A DNA stretch of 48,119 nucleotides. Origin: a virus (lineage: Duplodnaviria > Heunggongvirae > Uroviricota > Caudoviricetes). Location: the IMG/VR virus record IMGVR_UViG_643348551_000006, positions 1 through 48,119 of that record. One strand, 5' to 3'. Position 1 is the first letter of the stretch. Every line of letters starts with the position of its first letter. Position numbers and translations under genes: made by a program. The notes beneath the pieces were generated by a model. The model made no database searches, was not told the origin of the DNA, and saw nothing but the letters and a program-made list of their open reading frames with translations. Of the stretch, positions 2,203 through 43,946 are shown in pieces.

Positions 2203-3975
2203 CTAATAAACCCGGATAAATAGACCAATCATGATGCCATCAGAACCCGCACTCCCCAGCCGTGAGCCCGACAACGCCCGGTATGTCCCCGAAAACGCAC
2301 CGCCTGCATACACAGAAATATCGCTGGTTTGTTGAATCGCGGGGTAGTCTGTTATCCCGACACACTTAAACTCAATAATCATAAGACGTGAGCCGGGATA
2401 CAGGTCACCACGATTTATCTGACGATTTGAATCTGAGCTGTAAGTTCCCTTGTACCCCGCCAGTACAAGACTGCCAATACCGTATCCGTCATATGTCGTT
2501 CCGGGGGTAATCCCGGACAGCGTAGCGACAACGGACGACGGCGTGTATTTCAGGGATTCCCACTCCATCAGTTTGCCAGTGGGCGAGTACCAATTCACAT
2601 GAACGCCACCATTAACACCGTAGAAAATAATATTTTTAGGTTGTTTTTCTGCTTCACCACTGGTATCGGCACTCGTCCAGATGACGTCCACAACACCAAT
2701 AAATAGTTCCCCCTCTATTACGACCCCGTTTTCCGGCCTCGTACTCACGGCATAACGTCCGGGGAGAGCGTTTTTTGCCCACGAGAGGAACATTGACCCT
2801 GACTGAAAATACACTCTGTCTTTGACAGTAAATATTTTCCCGAATCCGGACATGCCGGGGACAGCAAGACGACCGTCTGTGCAGTCGTAAATATCTGCCT
2901 GTGGTTCCATCGTGGCCGCGCTTTTTAGCCCCAGATTATCACGTGACTCCTGTTGTGCTTGTTCACCTGCTGCCGCAATCTCTGACAGATTACCGGACGT
3001 TTTCAGGGTGTTCGCCAGCAGGACATCAATGTCGTTTTTTGCCTGCTCAGCTGCGCGGGCATAACCTGCGGCTACCCGTGCGCTCTGTTCAGATGAGGCC
3101 GCGCTTTCCCCCGCACTTTTCACATCTTCCGCAGTGGCCTTTCTGTCACAGGCTGTGGCCGTTGCATCCTGTCTGGCGTTCTCCGCAAAGCGCTCAGCAT
3201 CATCACGTGCTGCTGCGGTTGCCGTCACATCCTGTGCGGTCTGCAGTGTGTTTCCTGCAACATTATCGGCGTGACTTTTCGCGTTTTGCGCACTTCGGGC
3301 TGCATTATCAGCGTGACTTTTTGCGCTCTGTTCGCTTCGGGCAGCGTTATCCGCATTGTTTTTTGATTCCTCTGCGCTGGATGCAGAATCATCTGCTGCC
3401 TGTTGAGCCTGCTTTACTGCATCTGTAACACTCTGCACACCCTGTTGCATCTGTCCAGCATTCTGCTCAACTTCTGCAGCCAGATGTTCAACGTGTTGTT
3501 TATCTTCGGCAACCGCGGTGGCGTTCAGCTGTACGTTATCCGCCAGCGTCTGACAGTCTTCCTTTATCTTCTGCGCATCAGCGACATGTTGCCCGGCCTG
3601 TTGTTCGCTTTCCGCTGCGGATTCGGCGCTCTGCTGCGCCTGTGCCACCATTCTCTCAAAGCGTTTCACCACGTCGGGTTTGAGGTCGCCTTCATCGGGA
3701 GCGGTCAGAAAGTCGTTCAGCGTGCCGGGCTTTGCGTCATCGTATACAGCAATGTCGCCAACACAGTACTCGTCGCGCCAGCCCTGTTTCAGATACACGC
3801 GATATTTTCCGGTCCGGGCCTCAAACGAATACTCCCCGTTATTTCCGGTCACCACATCAGCTTCAGTGCGCATCACCACTTCTGATGTGTTCACCCGGGA
3901 TTTCAGAATAATGTGGCATCCGGACATGGGGATGCCTGCGCCATCAGTCAGCGCACCATAAATTAAAACGGACAT
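2203..3975 (-). CDS. stf: Side tail fibre protein (Stf-like); start placed at internal Met MSVLIYGALTDG
   Basis: N-terminus MSVLIYGALTDGAG...GTLNDFL shared with the upstream fibre and with lambda Stf; repeated ADNAARSxQxAKSH units; C-terminal receptor-binding region of the kind that needs Tfa. Confidence 0.85.
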   Translation of the reverse strand: MSVLIYGALTDGAGIPMSGCHIILKSRVNTSEVVMRTEADVVTGNNGEYSFEARTGKYRVYLKQGWRDEYCVGDIAVYDDAKPGTLNDFLTAPDEGDLKPDVVKRFERMVAQAQQSAESAAESEQQAGQHVADAQKIKEDCQTLADNVQLNATAVAEDKQHVEHLAAEVEQNAGQMQQGVQSVTDAVKQAQQAADDSASSAEESKNNADNAARSEQSAKSHADNAARSAQNAKSHADNVAGNTLQTAQDVTATAAARDDAERFAENARQDATATACDRKATAEDVKSAGESAASSEQSARVAAGYARAAEQAKNDIDVLLANTLKTSGNLSEIAAAGEQAQQESRDNLGLKSAATMEPQADIYDCTDGRLAVPGMSGFGKIFTVKDRVYFQSGSMFLSWAKNALPGRYAVSTRPENGVVIEGELFIGVVDVIWTSADTSGEAEKQPKNIIFYGVNGGVHVNWYSPTGKLMEWESLKYTPSSVVATLSGITPGTTYDGYGIGSLVLAGYKGTYSSDSNRQINRGDLYPGSRLMIIEFKCVGITDYPAIQQTSDISVYAGGAFSGTYRALSGSRLGSAGSDGIMIGLFIRVY

Positions 3976-30628: not shown

Positions 30629-30704
<76 letters not shown>

Positions 30705-34196: not shown

Positions 34197-34352
34197 TTAC
34201 TTCTCAGATTCGTAGTCTACGAAGACAGCAACCTCCGTCTGGCCGGTTCGGATTCGTACCTCGCAGAGGTCTTTCCTCGTTACCAGTGCCGTCACTATGA
34301 CGGTTAAACAGATGACGATCAGGGCGATTAACATCGCCTTTTGCTGCTTCAT
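34197..34352 (-). CDS. hokD: Hok/Gef-family type I toxin (51 aa)
   Basis: MKQQKAMLIALIVICLTVIVTALVTRKDLCEVRIRTGQTEVAVF..., near-identical to E. coli HokD/HokC; in-frame upstream extension to 34409 resembles a mok-type leader. Confidence 0.8.
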   Translation of the reverse strand: MKQQKAMLIALIVICLTVIVTALVTRKDLCEVRIRTGQTEVAVFVDYESEK

Positions 34353-34480
34353 AGCCTGCTTCTCCTTGCCTTTCGGCACGTAAGAGGCTAACCTGATGTT
34401 GTCATGCATAGGGAGCCTCAGATTAATGTTAAGCGTCTTGCAGGACGCGTAATGTTAACTGGGGCTTTTCTCTATCTGCC
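34353..34480 (-). promoter_or_regulatory. hok leader region (expected mok start, Sok antisense RNA target, fold-back structure)
   Basis: Inverted repeat TCTATCTGCC...GGCAGATAGCC in the 5' leader. By analogy with hok/sok loci; Sok promoter not pinpointed. Confidence 0.35.
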
Positions 34481-34641
34481 TTTTGGTGTTCATGCCTGAG
34501 GCAGATAGCCTCAAGCACCCGCAGCAATTCTACTTAACTCTCCTTTTCCCGCAAACCGTTTTTATCCCCAGCGGCAAATCGAATACACCACCAGCGCCAC
34601 CGCCATCGCAATTCCTACCGTTGTGAATGCTTCAGGCCAGG

Positions 34642-41078: not shown

Positions 41079-41726
41079 ATGATGGAAAGCCTTGGCATCA
41101 GGCTTAAGAAACTCAGAAAAGATAAGGGACTCACCCAAGTAGAACTGGGTAAGCTTTCAGGCGTGACTGGGGTTACTATAGGGTACTGGGAGAAAGATCT
41201 AAACGAACCCGGCAGCAAAGCTCTAAGTAAGTTAGCCCAGGCATTAGGAACTACTGAGTCCTATCTCCTGTATGGAGTATCGTCTCCTGAACTATCTTTT
41301 GTGCAGAGCAATCCAGGCACCAAGATCCCCTACTTTTCGTGGGGTGACGCGATTTCTTTCCTAATCTTAGAAGGAGAGAAAACAATGGGAAATGTCGATA
41401 GGATCACCACATTCTTTGATGTAGTGGAAGGTGATTTTGCCGTTTCAATGCCTGATGACACTATGCATAACCCCTCAGGGTCACCAAGTATCCCGGTTGG
41501 TGCCACTGTGATCCTAAGACCAGGAGAGAGTTATAAAAATGGCAGTATCGTCGCTGTAATAGTTCCAGATCCACTTACAAATGAACCGTCTATGACTATA
41601 AAAAAATTAGTTATTGATGGAAAACTTGTGTATTTAAGCCCTCTCAATCCGCGCTATCAATCATCCTTGCTTACGCCAGAGTGTAAAATTGTTGCCGTAG
41701 CAAAAGGTGTGCAGTTCAACCTATAA
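41079..41726 (+). CDS. cI: CI-type prophage repressor (N-terminal HTH, C-terminal S24 LexA-like autopeptidase domain)
   Basis: HTH LTQVELGKLSGVTGVTIGYWE; C-terminal S24-like region ...KLVIDGKLVYLSPLNP.... Not DicA-like, which lacks the peptidase domain. Confidence 0.85.
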   Translation: MMESLGIRLKKLRKDKGLTQVELGKLSGVTGVTIGYWEKDLNEPGSKALSKLAQALGTTESYLLYGVSSPELSFVQSNPGTKIPYFSWGDAISFLILEGEKTMGNVDRITTFFDVVEGDFAVSMPDDTMHNPSGSPSIPVGATVILRPGESYKNGSIVAVIVPDPLTNEPSMTIKKLVIDGKLVYLSPLNPRYQSSLLTPECKIVAVAKGVQFNL

Positions 41727-42556: not shown

Positions 42557-42760
42557 ATGATGGAAGAGACAGAACTTAAACACATTATCGCCTTACTTTT
42601 GGAAGACGCAAAACGTCTACAGCAACTGGAACCAAATGCAGGCACAGAGGCCCGCATTTGGATTGCCATGAAATCACTCAAATGTGAAAGCAGTGATTAT
42701 TTCAAAACAACAATTAAAACTACTCAACTTTCGGGAGAGCTACTGAAGAAATTGCCATAA
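42557..42760 (+). CDS. Hypothetical ORF (67 aa) in the dicB operon leader
   Basis: ORF-track ORF; overlaps a convergent minus-strand ORF; coding status uncertain. Confidence 0.3.
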   Translation: MMEETELKHIIALLLEDAKRLQQLEPNAGTEARIWIAMKSLKCESSDYFKTTIKTTQLSGELLKKLP

Positions 42761-42998
42761 GAGCATGGTCTTTCTCTTGTTCTGCAAGATGCGCATTAAT
42801 ACCTGGTATGGTTTTTTCAAATTTATCTATCTGTTGAATAACAACTTCGCGGTATACGTTTGTTTTTGTACCACCAAGCGCAGCCGTTAATGCAGAAAGC
42901 ATATTTAGTATCATATCAGTGCGATATGAAAGAATCCTGATAGCTTCATCTTGTTTTTCAATAATAGATTGCAGGGCCTCAATTTGCTTTTTATCCAT
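42720..42998 (-). CDS. Hypothetical antisense ORF (92 aa from MDKKQIEAL) inside the dicB operon leader
   Basis: Coiled-coil-like composition; opposite orientation to the surrounding operon; coding status uncertain. Confidence 0.25.
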   Translation of the reverse strand: MDKKQIEALQSIIEKQDEAIRILSYRTDMILNMLSALTAALGGTKTNVYREVVIQQIDKFEKTIPGINAHLAEQEKDHALMAISSVALPKVE

Positions 42999-43318
42999 TT
43001 CACCCTCCTGAGGGTTGGTAATTAAGGAGTTCTCCACGGGTGAGGTGGAGTGCGTGCGCCGGACACGGGTGAGCATCCGGCACTGACAGTTTACTGAAAG
43101 GATATGTCCCTGAAAGTCAGGGCATAACGCGAAAGCGCACGGCGAAATTGGTCTCTCTGTACGGTGTCGTTAAATTTAGTTCGACCGTGCGCTTCCGGTT
43201 GTGGCACTCCGCGAAATGGCGCGGAGGTAAGTATGGCGGGGTTATTCCTTCCCCGTTGAGGACACCGGGTTGTCAGGTTGACCATACGCTTAAGTGACAA
43301 CCCCGCTGCAACAACCCA

Positions 43319-43375
43319 TGTTGATTACCTTTTGGCGGCATCAGTTTCATTGCTGGCTGATGTCCGCCCTTTTTA
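43319..43375 (+). ncRNA. dicF: DicF-like small RNA (cell-division/ftsZ-regulating sRNA family)
   Basis: TTTGGCGGCATCAGTTT...GCTGATGTCCGCCC then TTTTT: the GGCGG-(C/T)ATCAGTTT core and intrinsic terminator resemble E. coli DicF (from memory); located upstream of dicB as in Qin. Confidence 0.5.
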
Positions 43376-43377
43376 AA

Positions 43378-43541
43378 GTGAATTTTGTGATGCGGTGAAT
43401 GCGGCTCAGCGCACGCGGAACAGTTAAAAAGGCCAGTTGACTTCCGTATTGGTTCTTATGGGTGGGTTCTCTGTATCCGGCGTTAATTGTTAACTGGTTA
43501 ACGTCACCTGGAGGCACCAGGCACCGCATCACAAAATTCAT
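43378..43541 (+). repeat. Perfect 19-20 bp inverted repeat (GTGAATTTTGTGATGCGGTG ... CACCGCATCACAAAATTCA) spanning ~125 nt just upstream of dicB
   Basis: Read directly from the sequence; arms at 43378..43397 and 43523..43541. Candidate long RNA stem (RNase III-type processing site) in the dicB operon transcript. Confidence 0.6.
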
Positions 43542-43557
43542 TGTTGAGGACGCGATA

Positions 43558-43746
43558 ATGGAAACGTTATTACCAAACGTCAATACGTCTGAAGGTTGTT
43601 TTGAAATTGGTGTCATAATCAGTAACCCTGTATTTACTGAAGATGCCATTAATAAGAGAAAACACGAACGGGAGCTATTAAATCAAATATGCATTGTTTC
43701 AATGCTGGCCCGTTTACGCCTGATGCAAAAAGGACGCTGCCAATGA
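43558..43746 (+). CDS. dicB: Cell division inhibitor DicB
   Basis: METLLPNVNTSEGCFEIGVIISNPVFTEDAINKRKHERELLNQICIVSMLARLRLMQKGRCQ, 62 aa, near-identical to E. coli DicB. Confidence 0.85.
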   Translation: METLLPNVNTSEGCFEIGVIISNPVFTEDAINKRKHERELLNQICIVSMLARLRLMQKGRCQ

Positions 43747-43946
43747 ATACAGCATTTGCACTCGTTCTGACAGTTTTTCTTAATACAGGCGAACCAGTCG
43801 ATCTTGTTATTGGTATACATGACTCAATGAAAGAATGCATGGCTGCCGCAGCGGAACAGAAAATTCCCGGCAACTGTTATCCGGTTGATAAAGTTATTCG
43901 CATGGACAATAACGAAATCCCGGCAGGACTTAAAACAGCACCGTAA
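43743..43946 (+). CDS. ydfD: YdfD-like protein
   Basis: MNTAFALVLTVFLNTGEPVDLVIGIHDSMKECMAAAAEQKIPGNCYPVDKVIRMDNNEIPAGL...; start overlaps the dicB stop (ATGA). Confidence 0.8.
   Translation: MNTAFALVLTVFLNTGEPVDLVIGIHDSMKECMAAAAEQKIPGNCYPVDKVIRMDNNEIPAGLKTAP

Follow-up and report, generated by a model that had tools for sequence, protein, structure and literature searches.

The window, that is the whole 48,119-nt stretch of viral DNA analysed here, contains a locus in which a cI-like repressor gene (HTH and S24 domains), a ydfA-like DUF1391 gene, DicF, dicB, a ydfD-like DUF1482 gene and an exonuclease gene follow one another. According to Pfam assignments, this is the order found in Qin. 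The features relevant to this study are as follows.

43130..43197, + strand: long helix ahead of DicF in its precursor (CGAAAGCGCACGG / CCGTGCGCTTCCG with adjoining pairs; inverted repeat, fold)
43319..43374, + strand: DicF-type small RNA, divergent, intrinsic terminator included (Rfam RF00039 below cut-off, terminator scan, fold)
43377..43397, + strand: 5' arm of helix P1, the extended closing helix (21 nt; repeat search, fold, leader alignment)
43398..43521, + strand: STnc100/PasD-type structured core (RF02076, model R1, covariation)
43522..43542, + strand: 3' arm of helix P1 (repeat search, fold, leader alignment)
43544..43550, + strand: UUGAGGA including the dicB Shine-Dalgarno (SD) sequence (GAGGA, 43546-43550; ViennaRNA fold of 43370-43600)
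43558..43746, + strand: dicB, 62 aa (Pfam PF05358 DicB, 132.3 bits, full length; RefSeq annotation of near-identical matches)
43743..43946, + strand: ydfD-like DUF1482 gene (Pfam PF07358, 80.9 bits), joined to dicB by an ATGA stop/start overlap

The initial annotation proposed a DicF-like element with an intrinsic terminator upstream of dicB, as in Qin. Synteny confirms this view, as does the terminator, which the terminator scan and the fold define as a 13-pair hairpin (43334-43368) of the GGCGG...CCGCC type followed by the U-tract 43370-43374 (UUUUU). The same annotation had staked the assignment on recognition of DicF by Rfam. The gathering-threshold scan of the whole window returned no DicF, the only matches being sok and a tRNA fragment. 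With an E-value threshold, RF00039 aligns over the full model to 43319-43369 at 34.1 bits (E = 1.7e-5), under the curated cut-off of 48; K-12 DicF scores 76.7 bits and the K-12 Rac copy 39.1 bits. Despite this sub-cut-off score, homology to DicF is clear, and the element upstream of the helix is, judged by its alignment and Qin-like synteny, a DicF orthologue. The UUUGGCGG-AUCAGUUU core and CCGCCCUUUUU are kept relative to K-12 DicF. Changes affect the 5' part (10-nt gap) and the loop, which is unlike that of K-12 and lacks CUCCG. In a crude duplex energy calculation that ignores intramolecular structure, the window DicF reaches -25.7 kcal/mol with region -45..+25 of ftsZ, 64% of shuffles being as good, against -37.6 (3% of shuffles) for K-12 DicF. 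Complementarity to the ftsZ ribosome-binding site, on which division inhibition by DicF is based, may thus be weaker than in K-12.

A perfect inverted repeat does lie between the DicF-like element and dicB. Its 19-nt arms, 43379-43397 (TGAATTTTGTGATGCGGTG) and 43522-43540 (CACCGCATCACAAAATTCA), are 100% complementary and 124 nt apart. The repeat had been described as 20 bp long; 19 nt are perfect and the twentieth, G43378, pairs with U43541 only as G.U, and at the RNA level 43377-43397 and 43522-43542 form 21 contiguous pairs. The helix starts 2 nt past the U-tract of the DicF-type terminator. From its end to the dicB SD sequence there are 3 nt and to the start codon ATG (43558) 15 nt, instead of the 17 nt to the ribosome-binding site first reported. 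A search of the whole 48-kb window for inverted repeats of 16 nt or more within 300 nt gave, besides this one, a single short palindrome, and simple arithmetic gives a chance expectation of about 5e-5 for a perfect 19-mer repeat within 300 nt in 48 kb. Stems at 400 random positions in related loci reached 5-14 bp at best, G.U pairs included. Compared with shuffled sequences, the fold of the helix region has a z-score of -4.8.

In the alignment, the interval proves to be the orthologue of the dicF-dicB spacer of K-12 Qin, 91% identical and with the same arms. Two C-to-U changes in the K-12 arms yield U.G and G.U pairs. These differences are G.U-compatible on the + strand only, and the duplex is conserved as a + strand RNA. 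The inverted repeat is present in homologous operons, in K-12 Qin as well as in other leaders.

The segment of about 125 nt between the arms is not the mere spacer that it had been taken for. It comprises GGUGAAU, hairpin H1 (43401-43416), a variable region (43417-43478) carrying a 14-nt insertion relative to K-12, and hairpins P3 (43479-43505) and P4 (43507-43521), the latter within the motif CACCUGGAGGCACCAGGCACC. The STnc100 model RF02076 matches it at model positions 21-154 with 33.7 bits (E = 1.8e-5, cut-off 47). The corresponding scores are 34.4 bits in K-12 Qin, where the full model aligns, and 28 bits in K-12 Rac. In the reverse direction, model R1, derived from the leaders, matches Rfam-grade STnc100 copies with 35-51 bits (E = 1e-7 to 1e-11), so that covariance-model matches between leaders and STnc100 are significant both ways. 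In a family-wide alignment fitted to the model, 94.9% of cells are paired, compared with 41-46% when the pairing is slid, and 32 of the 41 pairs change on both sides. L006 and L009 represent intermediate forms that combine a window-type H1 with an STnc100-type P4. As judged from these models, the 124 nt between the arms form a conserved RNA of four helices, a homologue of STnc100 and PasD, below the Rfam cut-off and positive in the reciprocal test.

Free-standing members of this family are preceded by promoter-like hexamers, noted on visual inspection, and followed by GC-rich hairpins with T-runs. For the window core, no promoter-like site on the + strand and no terminator between core and dicB were found. 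PasD1 and PasD2 associate with Hfq, and PasD2 also with CsrA. Our search of the literature on STnc100 and PasD found no link to dicF or dicB, nor any published evidence for accumulation of an excised core. The sRNA ManS, which is processed by RNase III and encoded close to sialic-acid genes, was discarded; it corresponds to STnc500 and is unrelated.

Of 5,426 complete E. coli genomes, about 4,640 contain the module; K-12 Rac carries it before kilR. An exact scan of genome contigs for the leader-type motif gave 11 loci, mostly in Escherichia, Shigella and Citrobacter, which add little diversity and include several MAG taxon labels that look unreliable. We aligned 20 distinct leaders that precede dicB, kilR or another small ORF. 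The P1 cells are paired in 98.3% of cases, with double compensatory changes at two positions (U-A to C-G, A-U to G-C) and one-sided G.U-compatible changes at four. The leaders are close relatives of one another, and the long outer part of P1 accordingly shows only modest covariation. A scan that used only the DicF core as anchor identified 73 copies of DicF plus terminator with 45 distinct downstream sequences. The arms are present in all 45. In 42 of them the stem runs uninterrupted over 12-22 bp; the other three have lower scores in the ungapped search. In the kilR type, the longer helix is split by a 1-nt bulge.

These data were also used to evaluate whether the repeat could act at the DNA level, as terminal inverted repeats of a MITE, as a protein-binding palindrome or, in a variant, as part of a minus-strand gene region. 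The 166-bp unit with its perfect 19-bp inverted repeats at the ends does look MITE-like, similar cores are found in different settings and more than once in a genome, and a 100-aa ORF runs along the minus strand at 43347-43649. However, the flanks (TAA / GTT) show no target-site duplication, the ORF has no Pfam match, and the minus strand scores 38.8 bits with the model against 177.5 on the + strand. Moreover, the arm differences are G.U wobbles or compensatory pairs, workable only as + strand RNA, and arm length ranges between 4 and 21 bp, whereas the enclosed core is a single conserved one with four covarying internal helices. The MITE, the DNA palindrome and the minus-strand ORF were thus rejected on flanks, arm changes, Pfam and strand scores, and we regard a DNA-level role as very improbable.

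The window repeat corresponds to the RNase III processing site described in 1990 in K-12 between DicF and dicB. In two papers that cite Faubladier 1990, RNase III processing of the read-through dicBF transcript is stated to give a 72-nt DicF (PMC5069750, PMC9438474), and a list of RNase III substrates includes the dicA-dicF-dicB intergenic regions (PMC2777011). The proposal that the repeat is an RNase III substrate agrees with these statements on K-12. Our evidence for the K-12 site thus consists of three secondary citations together with coordinate counting. Starting from the 5' end of K-12 DicF (position 2489 of the K-12 locus L001), which carries an uncertainty of a few nt, 72 nt lead to position ~2560, in the middle of the 5' arm (2549-2569). 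By this mapping, the 3' end of 72-nt DicF would fall within the 5' arm, at the centre of the helix. RNase III is described as requiring a helix of about 22 bp, in which it makes a double cleavage leaving a 2-nt 3' overhang (PMC6212723). The 21-bp helix, or 28 bp with the extension presented below, fits both rules. In two transcriptome-wide RNase III papers (PMC6212723, PMC5371410), DicF appears only as a citation, and our search found no further literature on the dicF-dicB or kilR 5' leader. The helix is an established and already known feature of K-12 Qin, and the present copy is an ordinary orthologue of it beside a divergent DicF.

A second long helix, of about 16 bp in the fold, is found upstream of DicF (43130..43197). 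Window region 43061-43318 is 92% identical to K-12, so this helix of the DicF precursor is kept here too. RNase III makes the 5' end of a 190-nt DicF species in K-12 (bioRxiv 10.1101/2023.04.14.536235). Counting back 190 nt in K-12 leads to ~2352-2357 of L001, equivalent to ~43192-43197 of the window, and the upstream helix would accordingly correspond to this RNase III site. The cut upstream of DicF is the better studied one for the DicF precursor. In Ragunathan et al. 2023, RNase III action is described for the 5' side of DicF alone (190-nt species), and a ydfABC-dicFB-ydfDE read-through RNA was not detected under the conditions used, which counts against processing of a read-through transcript.

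One may ask whether P1 is simply the closing stem of an STnc100-like leader or sRNA, serving the fold or protecting it from nucleases, with the long DicF arising elsewhere and RNase III playing no part at the helix. P1 does close the structure family-wide, with strong covariation, the relatives are stable Hfq- and CsrA-associated sRNAs that have no long stem, and the emphasis in recent work is on the cut that RNase III makes ahead of DicF. However, the closing stem measures 4-10 bp in free-standing STnc100 relatives versus ~21-23 paired positions in the DicF-adjacent copies, and the long helix is carried only by the latter, beside DicF terminators. The length of the helix here is explained by the presence of DicF, since the extension accompanies DicF rather than the RNA inside the helix. 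In L006-type phages, an unrelated helix of 20-25 bp directly follows a DicF-like terminator; the architecture thus recurs at the same place with a different sequence. Finally, the 72-nt 3' end, for which RNase III dependence is reported in the citing papers, maps into the 5' arm. A purely structural stem is therefore an unlikely explanation.

The ViennaRNA fold predicts that UUGAGGA (43544-43550) pairs with the U-tract of the DicF terminator and the following AA (43370-43376). This would add 7 bp on the SD side, giving 28 pairs in the unprocessed read-through RNA. The extension over the dicB SD sequence is weak and rich in G.U pairs. In the kilR-type leader, an analogous predicted extension reaches the GG of the kilR SD sequence; in the fold of a Citrobacter copy, no extension over the SD sequence was seen. 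The processed dicB leader folds into weak A-U-rich hairpins only. An effect of the helix on dicB translation is a candidate suggested by the predicted 7-bp extension.

On this basis, the helix might act on transcription or translation without being cleaved, as a roadblock, an attenuator or a switch sequestering the dicB SD sequence in read-through transcripts. The predicted pairing between U-tract and SD sequence, its counterpart in kilR leaders and the 3-nt distance from the helix end to the SD sequence would suit such a role. Against it, the pairing with the SD sequence is weak and absent from the Citrobacter copy, the 3' arm has no U-tract behind it, and the RNase III-dependent 72-nt DicF is left unexplained. 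We consider it improbable that the helix works in this way alone. Such an action is compatible with processing by RNase III and could add to it. A second terminator was ruled out, as there is no U-tract after the 3' arm.

Taken together, the repeat is probably the closing helix of a structured RNA in the early-left (dicBF) transcript of a Qin/Rac-type lambdoid prophage, cut by RNase III upon read-through. According to this model, polymerase stopping at the DicF terminator would yield short DicF only. Read-through, expected after derepression or antitermination, would allow the 21-bp helix to form 2 nt past the U-tract, and RNase III would cut both arms near the helix centre, at about 43388/43389 and 43532/43533. 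The 5' cut is placed according to the 3' end of 72-nt DicF in K-12 and the 3' cut according to the standard geometry of RNase III double cleavage, with a 2-nt 3' overhang (PMC6212723). The double cut would generate an alternative, longer DicF 3' end (the 72-nt species in K-12) and a dicB-ydfD mRNA with a leader of ~25 nt as dicB 5' UTR. It would also break up the helix predicted to extend over the dicB SD sequence and excise a core of ~144 nt homologous to the free-standing prophage sRNAs STnc100 and PasD.

The relationship of the enclosed RNA to the prophage small RNAs STnc100 and PasD is the less familiar point. The K-12 dicF-dicB and kilR leaders are now connected to this family, which offers a lead for work on prophage sRNAs. 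More speculatively, RNase III double cleavage could release an STnc100/PasD-family RNA of ~130-145 nt from both Qin-type (dicBF) and Rac-type (kilR) operons, including both K-12 copies, and a DicF terminator followed by a helix of at least 20 bp could be a selected module assembled at least twice from unrelated sequence. We put this forward tentatively, as a proposal that may well prove wrong. If true, the dicBF and kilR operons would encode a third, unrecognised RNA product, and the released core could act like its Hfq- and CsrA-associated free-standing relatives. The two routes of assembly would be extension of P1 in an STnc100-like element (Qin, Rac) and recruitment of a different hairpin (L006-type phages).

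The closest known counterpart is the K-12 Qin dicF-dicB RNase III site, which has the same position and the same arms, with the terminator 2 nt upstream and the SD sequence 3 nt downstream. The window copy differs by its perfect Watson-Crick arms, where K-12 has two G.U wobbles, by the 14-nt insertion in its variable region and by its divergent DicF (34 bits versus 77 bits in K-12). The Rac-type kilR leader, including that of K-12 Rac, shares the DicF-like terminator, the long P1, the conserved core and a small cell-division inhibitor gene ~30 nt downstream. In contrast, that gene is kilR, unrelated to dicB, and in the kilR helix, which contains more G.U pairs, an A bulges out at the site equivalent to the putative cut.

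STnc100, PasD1 and PasD2, prophage sRNAs of Salmonella and pathogenic E. coli, share with the window core the GGUGAAU and CACCNGGAGGCACCNGGCACC motifs, the helix order P1, H1, variable region, P3 and P4, and family-wide covariation. The window copy stands apart by a score under the Rfam gathering value (33.7 versus 47), by a closing helix of 21 bp rather than 4-10 bp, and by being embedded in an operon directly before an ORF, whereas the relatives are free-standing in late or moron regions.

A parallel in mode of action is offered by the leader of lambda N in the pL operon. There, a long RNase III-sensitive hairpin reportedly lies just upstream of a small early gene, and its cleavage is said, in work from 1991 attributed to Kameyama et al., to relieve a structural inhibition of translation. 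Both cases concern the leader of an early-left operon, with no sequence relationship between the hairpins. In the dicB leader the effect on translation is only predicted. Unlike the lambda hairpin, the dicB helix would also set the 3' end of an upstream sRNA, and it encloses a conserved structured RNA.

The genes around the dicF-dicB interval form the early-left operon of a Qin-type lambdoid prophage. In gene order, the elements are:

41079-41726: cI-like HTH/S24 repressor, first in the series (Pfam)
After the repressor: ydfA-like DUF1391 gene (Pfam)
Between the DUF1391 gene and DicF: small ORFs
43319-43369: DicF, between the small ORFs and dicB
43377-43397 and 43522-43542: arms of the long helix, P1
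43558-43746: dicB (Pfam DicB, 132 bits), whose identity is certain
After dicB: ydfD-like DUF1482 gene, its start overlapping the dicB stop
After the DUF1482 gene: 819-aa exonuclease VIII/Rv2179c-like protein

This interval is the ortholog of that of the K-12 Qin prophage; the initial annotation had already placed a DicF-like element upstream of dicB as in Qin. The two align at 91% identity, have the same Qin-type gene order and carry the same arms, found at 2551-2569 and 2680-2698 of the K-12 reference locus (L001; dicF 2489-2541, dicB 2716-2904). With respect to K-12, the window has 14 nt inserted within the variable part of the P1 interior. Over the 260 nt upstream of DicF, identity to K-12 is 92%, and the fold contains long helices. 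Searched by megablast, a 461-nt stretch around P1 has counterparts in 4,642 of 5,426 complete E. coli genomes, at a median of 2 and a maximum of 9 places per genome; identity reaches at least 99% in only 65 records.

A 118-aa minus-strand ORF (42720-43076), giving no match in a Pfam search, lies between ydfC-like small ORFs and the conserved DicF precursor region; K-12 homology starts at about 43061, just past its start. Elsewhere in the window are a full-length sok antitoxin RNA of a hok/sok-type toxin-antitoxin locus (34347-34520, minus strand; RF01794, 118 bits) and a partial tRNA (30640-30697, minus strand; positions 8-63 of 71 of the Rfam tRNA model, 48.5 bits), which may be a tRNA fragment at a prophage attachment site. 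ARAGORN found no complete tRNA in the window.

A repeat search located a perfect inverted repeat at 43379-43397 and 43522-43540, whose arms are separated by 124 nt. The perfect repeat first described as 20 bp is thus 19 nt long as DNA; in RNA, G43378.U43541 and A43377-U43542 extend it to 21 contiguous pairs. P1 ends 3 nt before the dicB SD sequence (GAGGA, 43546-43550) and 15 nt before the ATG, and not 17 nt before the RBS as initially reported. Among inverted repeats of at least 16 nt within 300 nt, the whole 48-kb window contains only P1 and one short palindrome. Under the same start constraint, the best stem at 400 random positions in related loci was 5-14 bp. Folding of 43319-43580 gives -98.2 kcal/mol, with z = -4.8 relative to dinucleotide shuffles. 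P1 is a real, non-random feature.

Directly upstream of P1, terminator scanning and folding reveal a hairpin with a U-tract inside the DicF-like sequence. DicF is not called in the window at the Rfam gathering score; with an E-value threshold, its model matches 43319-43369 over its full length (34.1 bits, E = 1.7e-5; cut-off 48). The DicF-like character of the element is retained, at a score below the family threshold. The window copy shares the terminator and the GGCGG-AUCAG core with K-12, whereas the 5' part, with a 10-nt gap and substitutions, and the loop differ. Neither the K-12 5' segment UUUCUGGUGACG nor the loop CUCCG, which pairs with ftsZ, is present in the window copy (compared with L001 2489-2541). 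In K-12 DicF, the 3' region pairs with ftsZ and the 5' end serves xylR. In a crude duplex calculation, the window copy paired with the ftsZ ribosome-binding site at -25.7 kcal/mol, no better than shuffles, as compared to -37.6 kcal/mol for K-12 DicF. The target range of the window copy may differ from that of K-12. Similar DicF variants occur in three other loci (L044, L126 and L217).

Two sources that cite Faubladier et al. 1990 (PMC5069750, Balasubramanian et al. 2016; PMC9438474, a 2022 review) describe a 53-nt DicF from Rho-independent termination and a 72-nt DicF from RNase III processing of the read-through dicBF transcript. The intergenic regions of dicA-dicF-dicB also figure as RNase III substrates in a 2009 review. 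In K-12, a 72-nt DicF beginning at the annotated 5' end (L001 2489) would end at about 2560. Within the 21-bp helix (2549-2569), this point lies 11-12 pairs inside the outer end and 9-10 inside the inner one, the position at which the cleavage rules of PMC6212723 predict RNase III to cut when a helix measures about 22 bp. Upstream of DicF, the 5' end of a 190-nt precursor is also made by RNase III (Ragunathan et al. 2023); counting back 190 nt places this cut in the 3' arm of a conserved helix (window 43130-43197). Long helices thus lie on both sides of DicF, and the window keeps the two of them. A purely structural stem that is not cleaved was weighed as a reading of P1. By these sources, P1 is the RNase III helix already known from the dicF-dicB interval, and most E. 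coli genomes carry it. The RNase III substrate proposed in the initial annotation was right in substance, and the overall interpretation was correct in outline; by the same sources, processing here is an established property of the locus and not new.

The 124 nt between the arms, initially described as a segment, appear to be a structured, STnc100/PasD-like RNA and not a spacer. With an E-value threshold, the STnc100 model (RF02076) matches 43381-43535 (33.7 bits, E = 1.8e-5; cut-off 47), with the model's outer helix falling on the inner portion of the repeat; on the K-12 spacer, the model scores 34.4 bits over its whole length. In viral contigs, the motif CACCNGGAGGCACCNGGCACC marks at least 120 loci with 103 distinct elements. 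These share a common plan: 5' arm, GGUGAAU, hairpin H1 (loop CUNNGCG), variable hairpins, hairpin P3, CACC, hairpin P4 (CNGGG-AGGCA-CCNGG), CACC and 3' arm. Most are STnc100 at the Rfam gathering score, often in tandem arrays beside tRNA genes, and many are preceded by what look by eye like promoter hexamers and followed by a GC-rich hairpin with a T-run. Intermediates such as L006 and L009 combine a window-type H1 sequence with an STnc100-type P4. R1, a covariance model built solely from 20 leader-type sequences, recovers Rfam-grade STnc100 copies in 328 kb (35-51 bits, E = 1e-7 to 1e-11). In a 49-row alignment fitted to the R1 model, 94.9% of pair cells are standard, against 41-46% with slid partners, and 32 of 41 pairs show both-side changes. 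From the model matches, the shared plan and the covariation, we conclude that the core probably belongs to the STnc100/PasD family, as a member that is both divergent and embedded. The sRNAs PasD1 and PasD2 depend on Hfq, PasD2 being the most abundant partner in CsrA ternary complexes; a preprint relates PasD to STnc100 and leaves DicF and dicB unmentioned (Zhu, Shabalina and Storz, 2026).

In phage contigs, tandem arrays of 4-5 STnc100 copies, each above the Rfam cut-off, abut tRNA genes (L016 2265-3380, L027 342-1038, L081 4349-5513), and isrI adjoins some of them. The P7 STnc100-like element lies inside the C1-controlled ban operon, between tRNA genes; this type also occurs in phage D6 and P1-like plasmids.

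The length of the closing stem varies with context. Free-standing relatives have 4-10 contiguous pairs; the P7 copy (L002 2499-2618, AF503408 72451-72570), which precedes terB by about 35 nt, closes with 9 bp, and a Klebsiella phage copy with no DicF upstream with an imperfect stem of about 17 bp. After a DicF-type terminator, dicB leaders have 21 contiguous pairs, and kilR and other leaders 10 pairs, a 1-nt bulge and 12-13 further pairs. K-12 Rac carries a DicF-like RNA (39 bits), then a leader (R1, 173.7 bits), before kilR, and the same module precedes kilR in Rac-type and Stx phages. A scan with the DicF core only (TTGGCGGNATCNGTTT) located 73 copies of DicF with its terminator, followed by 45 distinct sequences. 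P1-type arms occur in every one of the 45; an ungapped search found a contiguous 12-22 bp stem in 42, the longer kilR-type helix being split by a 1-nt bulge, and a lower score in three. In these comparisons, the long helix accompanies DicF rather than the core. L006-type phages have a short-stemmed STnc100-like element upstream of a DicF-like RNA, and an unrelated helix (20 contiguous pairs, 25 in the fold) at +0 nt after its terminator. This arrangement, at 3330-3660 (minus strand) of L006, recurs in L008, L021, L059 and L125.

The kilR-type leaders (L003 2505-2655; L237 5329-5489, minus strand; others) share one bulged A in the 3' arm (column 158 of alignment A2), between the pairs flanking the cut position inferred from the K-12 72-nt DicF. 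It might steer or restrict RNase III cleavage. The exact Escherichia-type leader motif also occurs in metagenome-assembled genomes labeled Acidimicrobiaceae, 'Proteobacteria bacterium' and Nanosynbacter (L131, L133 and L134; L133 has a typical DicF-leader-kilR module), which suggests contamination or mis-binning.

P1 could alternatively be a translational or transcriptional switch working without cleavage, or the repeat could be a DNA-level element (MITE or palindrome) or part of a minus-strand gene. Taken jointly, several observations argue against these readings. Across 20 distinct leaders, 98.3% of cells in the 21-pair helix are paired, with double compensatory changes at two positions (U-A to C-G, A-U to G-C) and one-sided changes to or from G.U at four; the signal is modest because the sequences are closely related. 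In the K-12 arms, two C-to-U differences give U.G and G.U pairs in the plus-strand RNA and A.C mismatches on the opposite strand. Besides this wobble and compensatory pattern, there are four covarying internal helices, no target duplication, no U-tract after the 3' arm and no Pfam match for the 100-aa minus-strand ORF at 43347-43649. What is new around the RNase III helix is the probable family link of the enclosed RNA to STnc100/PasD and a helix extension that seems specific to DicF, with an independent analogue in another phage lineage.

A stop at the DicF terminator gives short DicF, and we propose that in read-through transcripts, expected after derepression and in N-carrying phages such as POCJ13, P1 would form and be cut by RNase III. 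Cut sites predicted by homology to the 72-nt DicF end and the 2-nt-overhang rule would yield long DicF (end near 43388), a 144-nt core (43389-43532) and dicB mRNA (start near 43533). For the 144-nt core, folding gives -53.7 kcal/mol, the ends forming a 9-bp closing stem that leaves 2 nt of 3' overhang. A further new possibility raised by this model is that RNase III cleavage of dicBF and kilR operon transcripts sets an STnc100-like RNA free.

In the unprocessed RNA, 7 further pairs are predicted between the U-tract plus AA (43370-43376) and UUGAGGA (43544-43550), which contains the dicB SD. The kilR leader has a comparable predicted extension, up to its SD; no SD-reaching extension appears in the fold of the Citrobacter copy. 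If the extension covers the dicB SD, cleavage could free it. Cleavage may instead have the opposite outcome, with the 5'-monophosphorylated dicB mRNA decaying faster. In the lambda N leader, RNase III cleavage frees the SD, and the release proposed here for dicB would resemble it.
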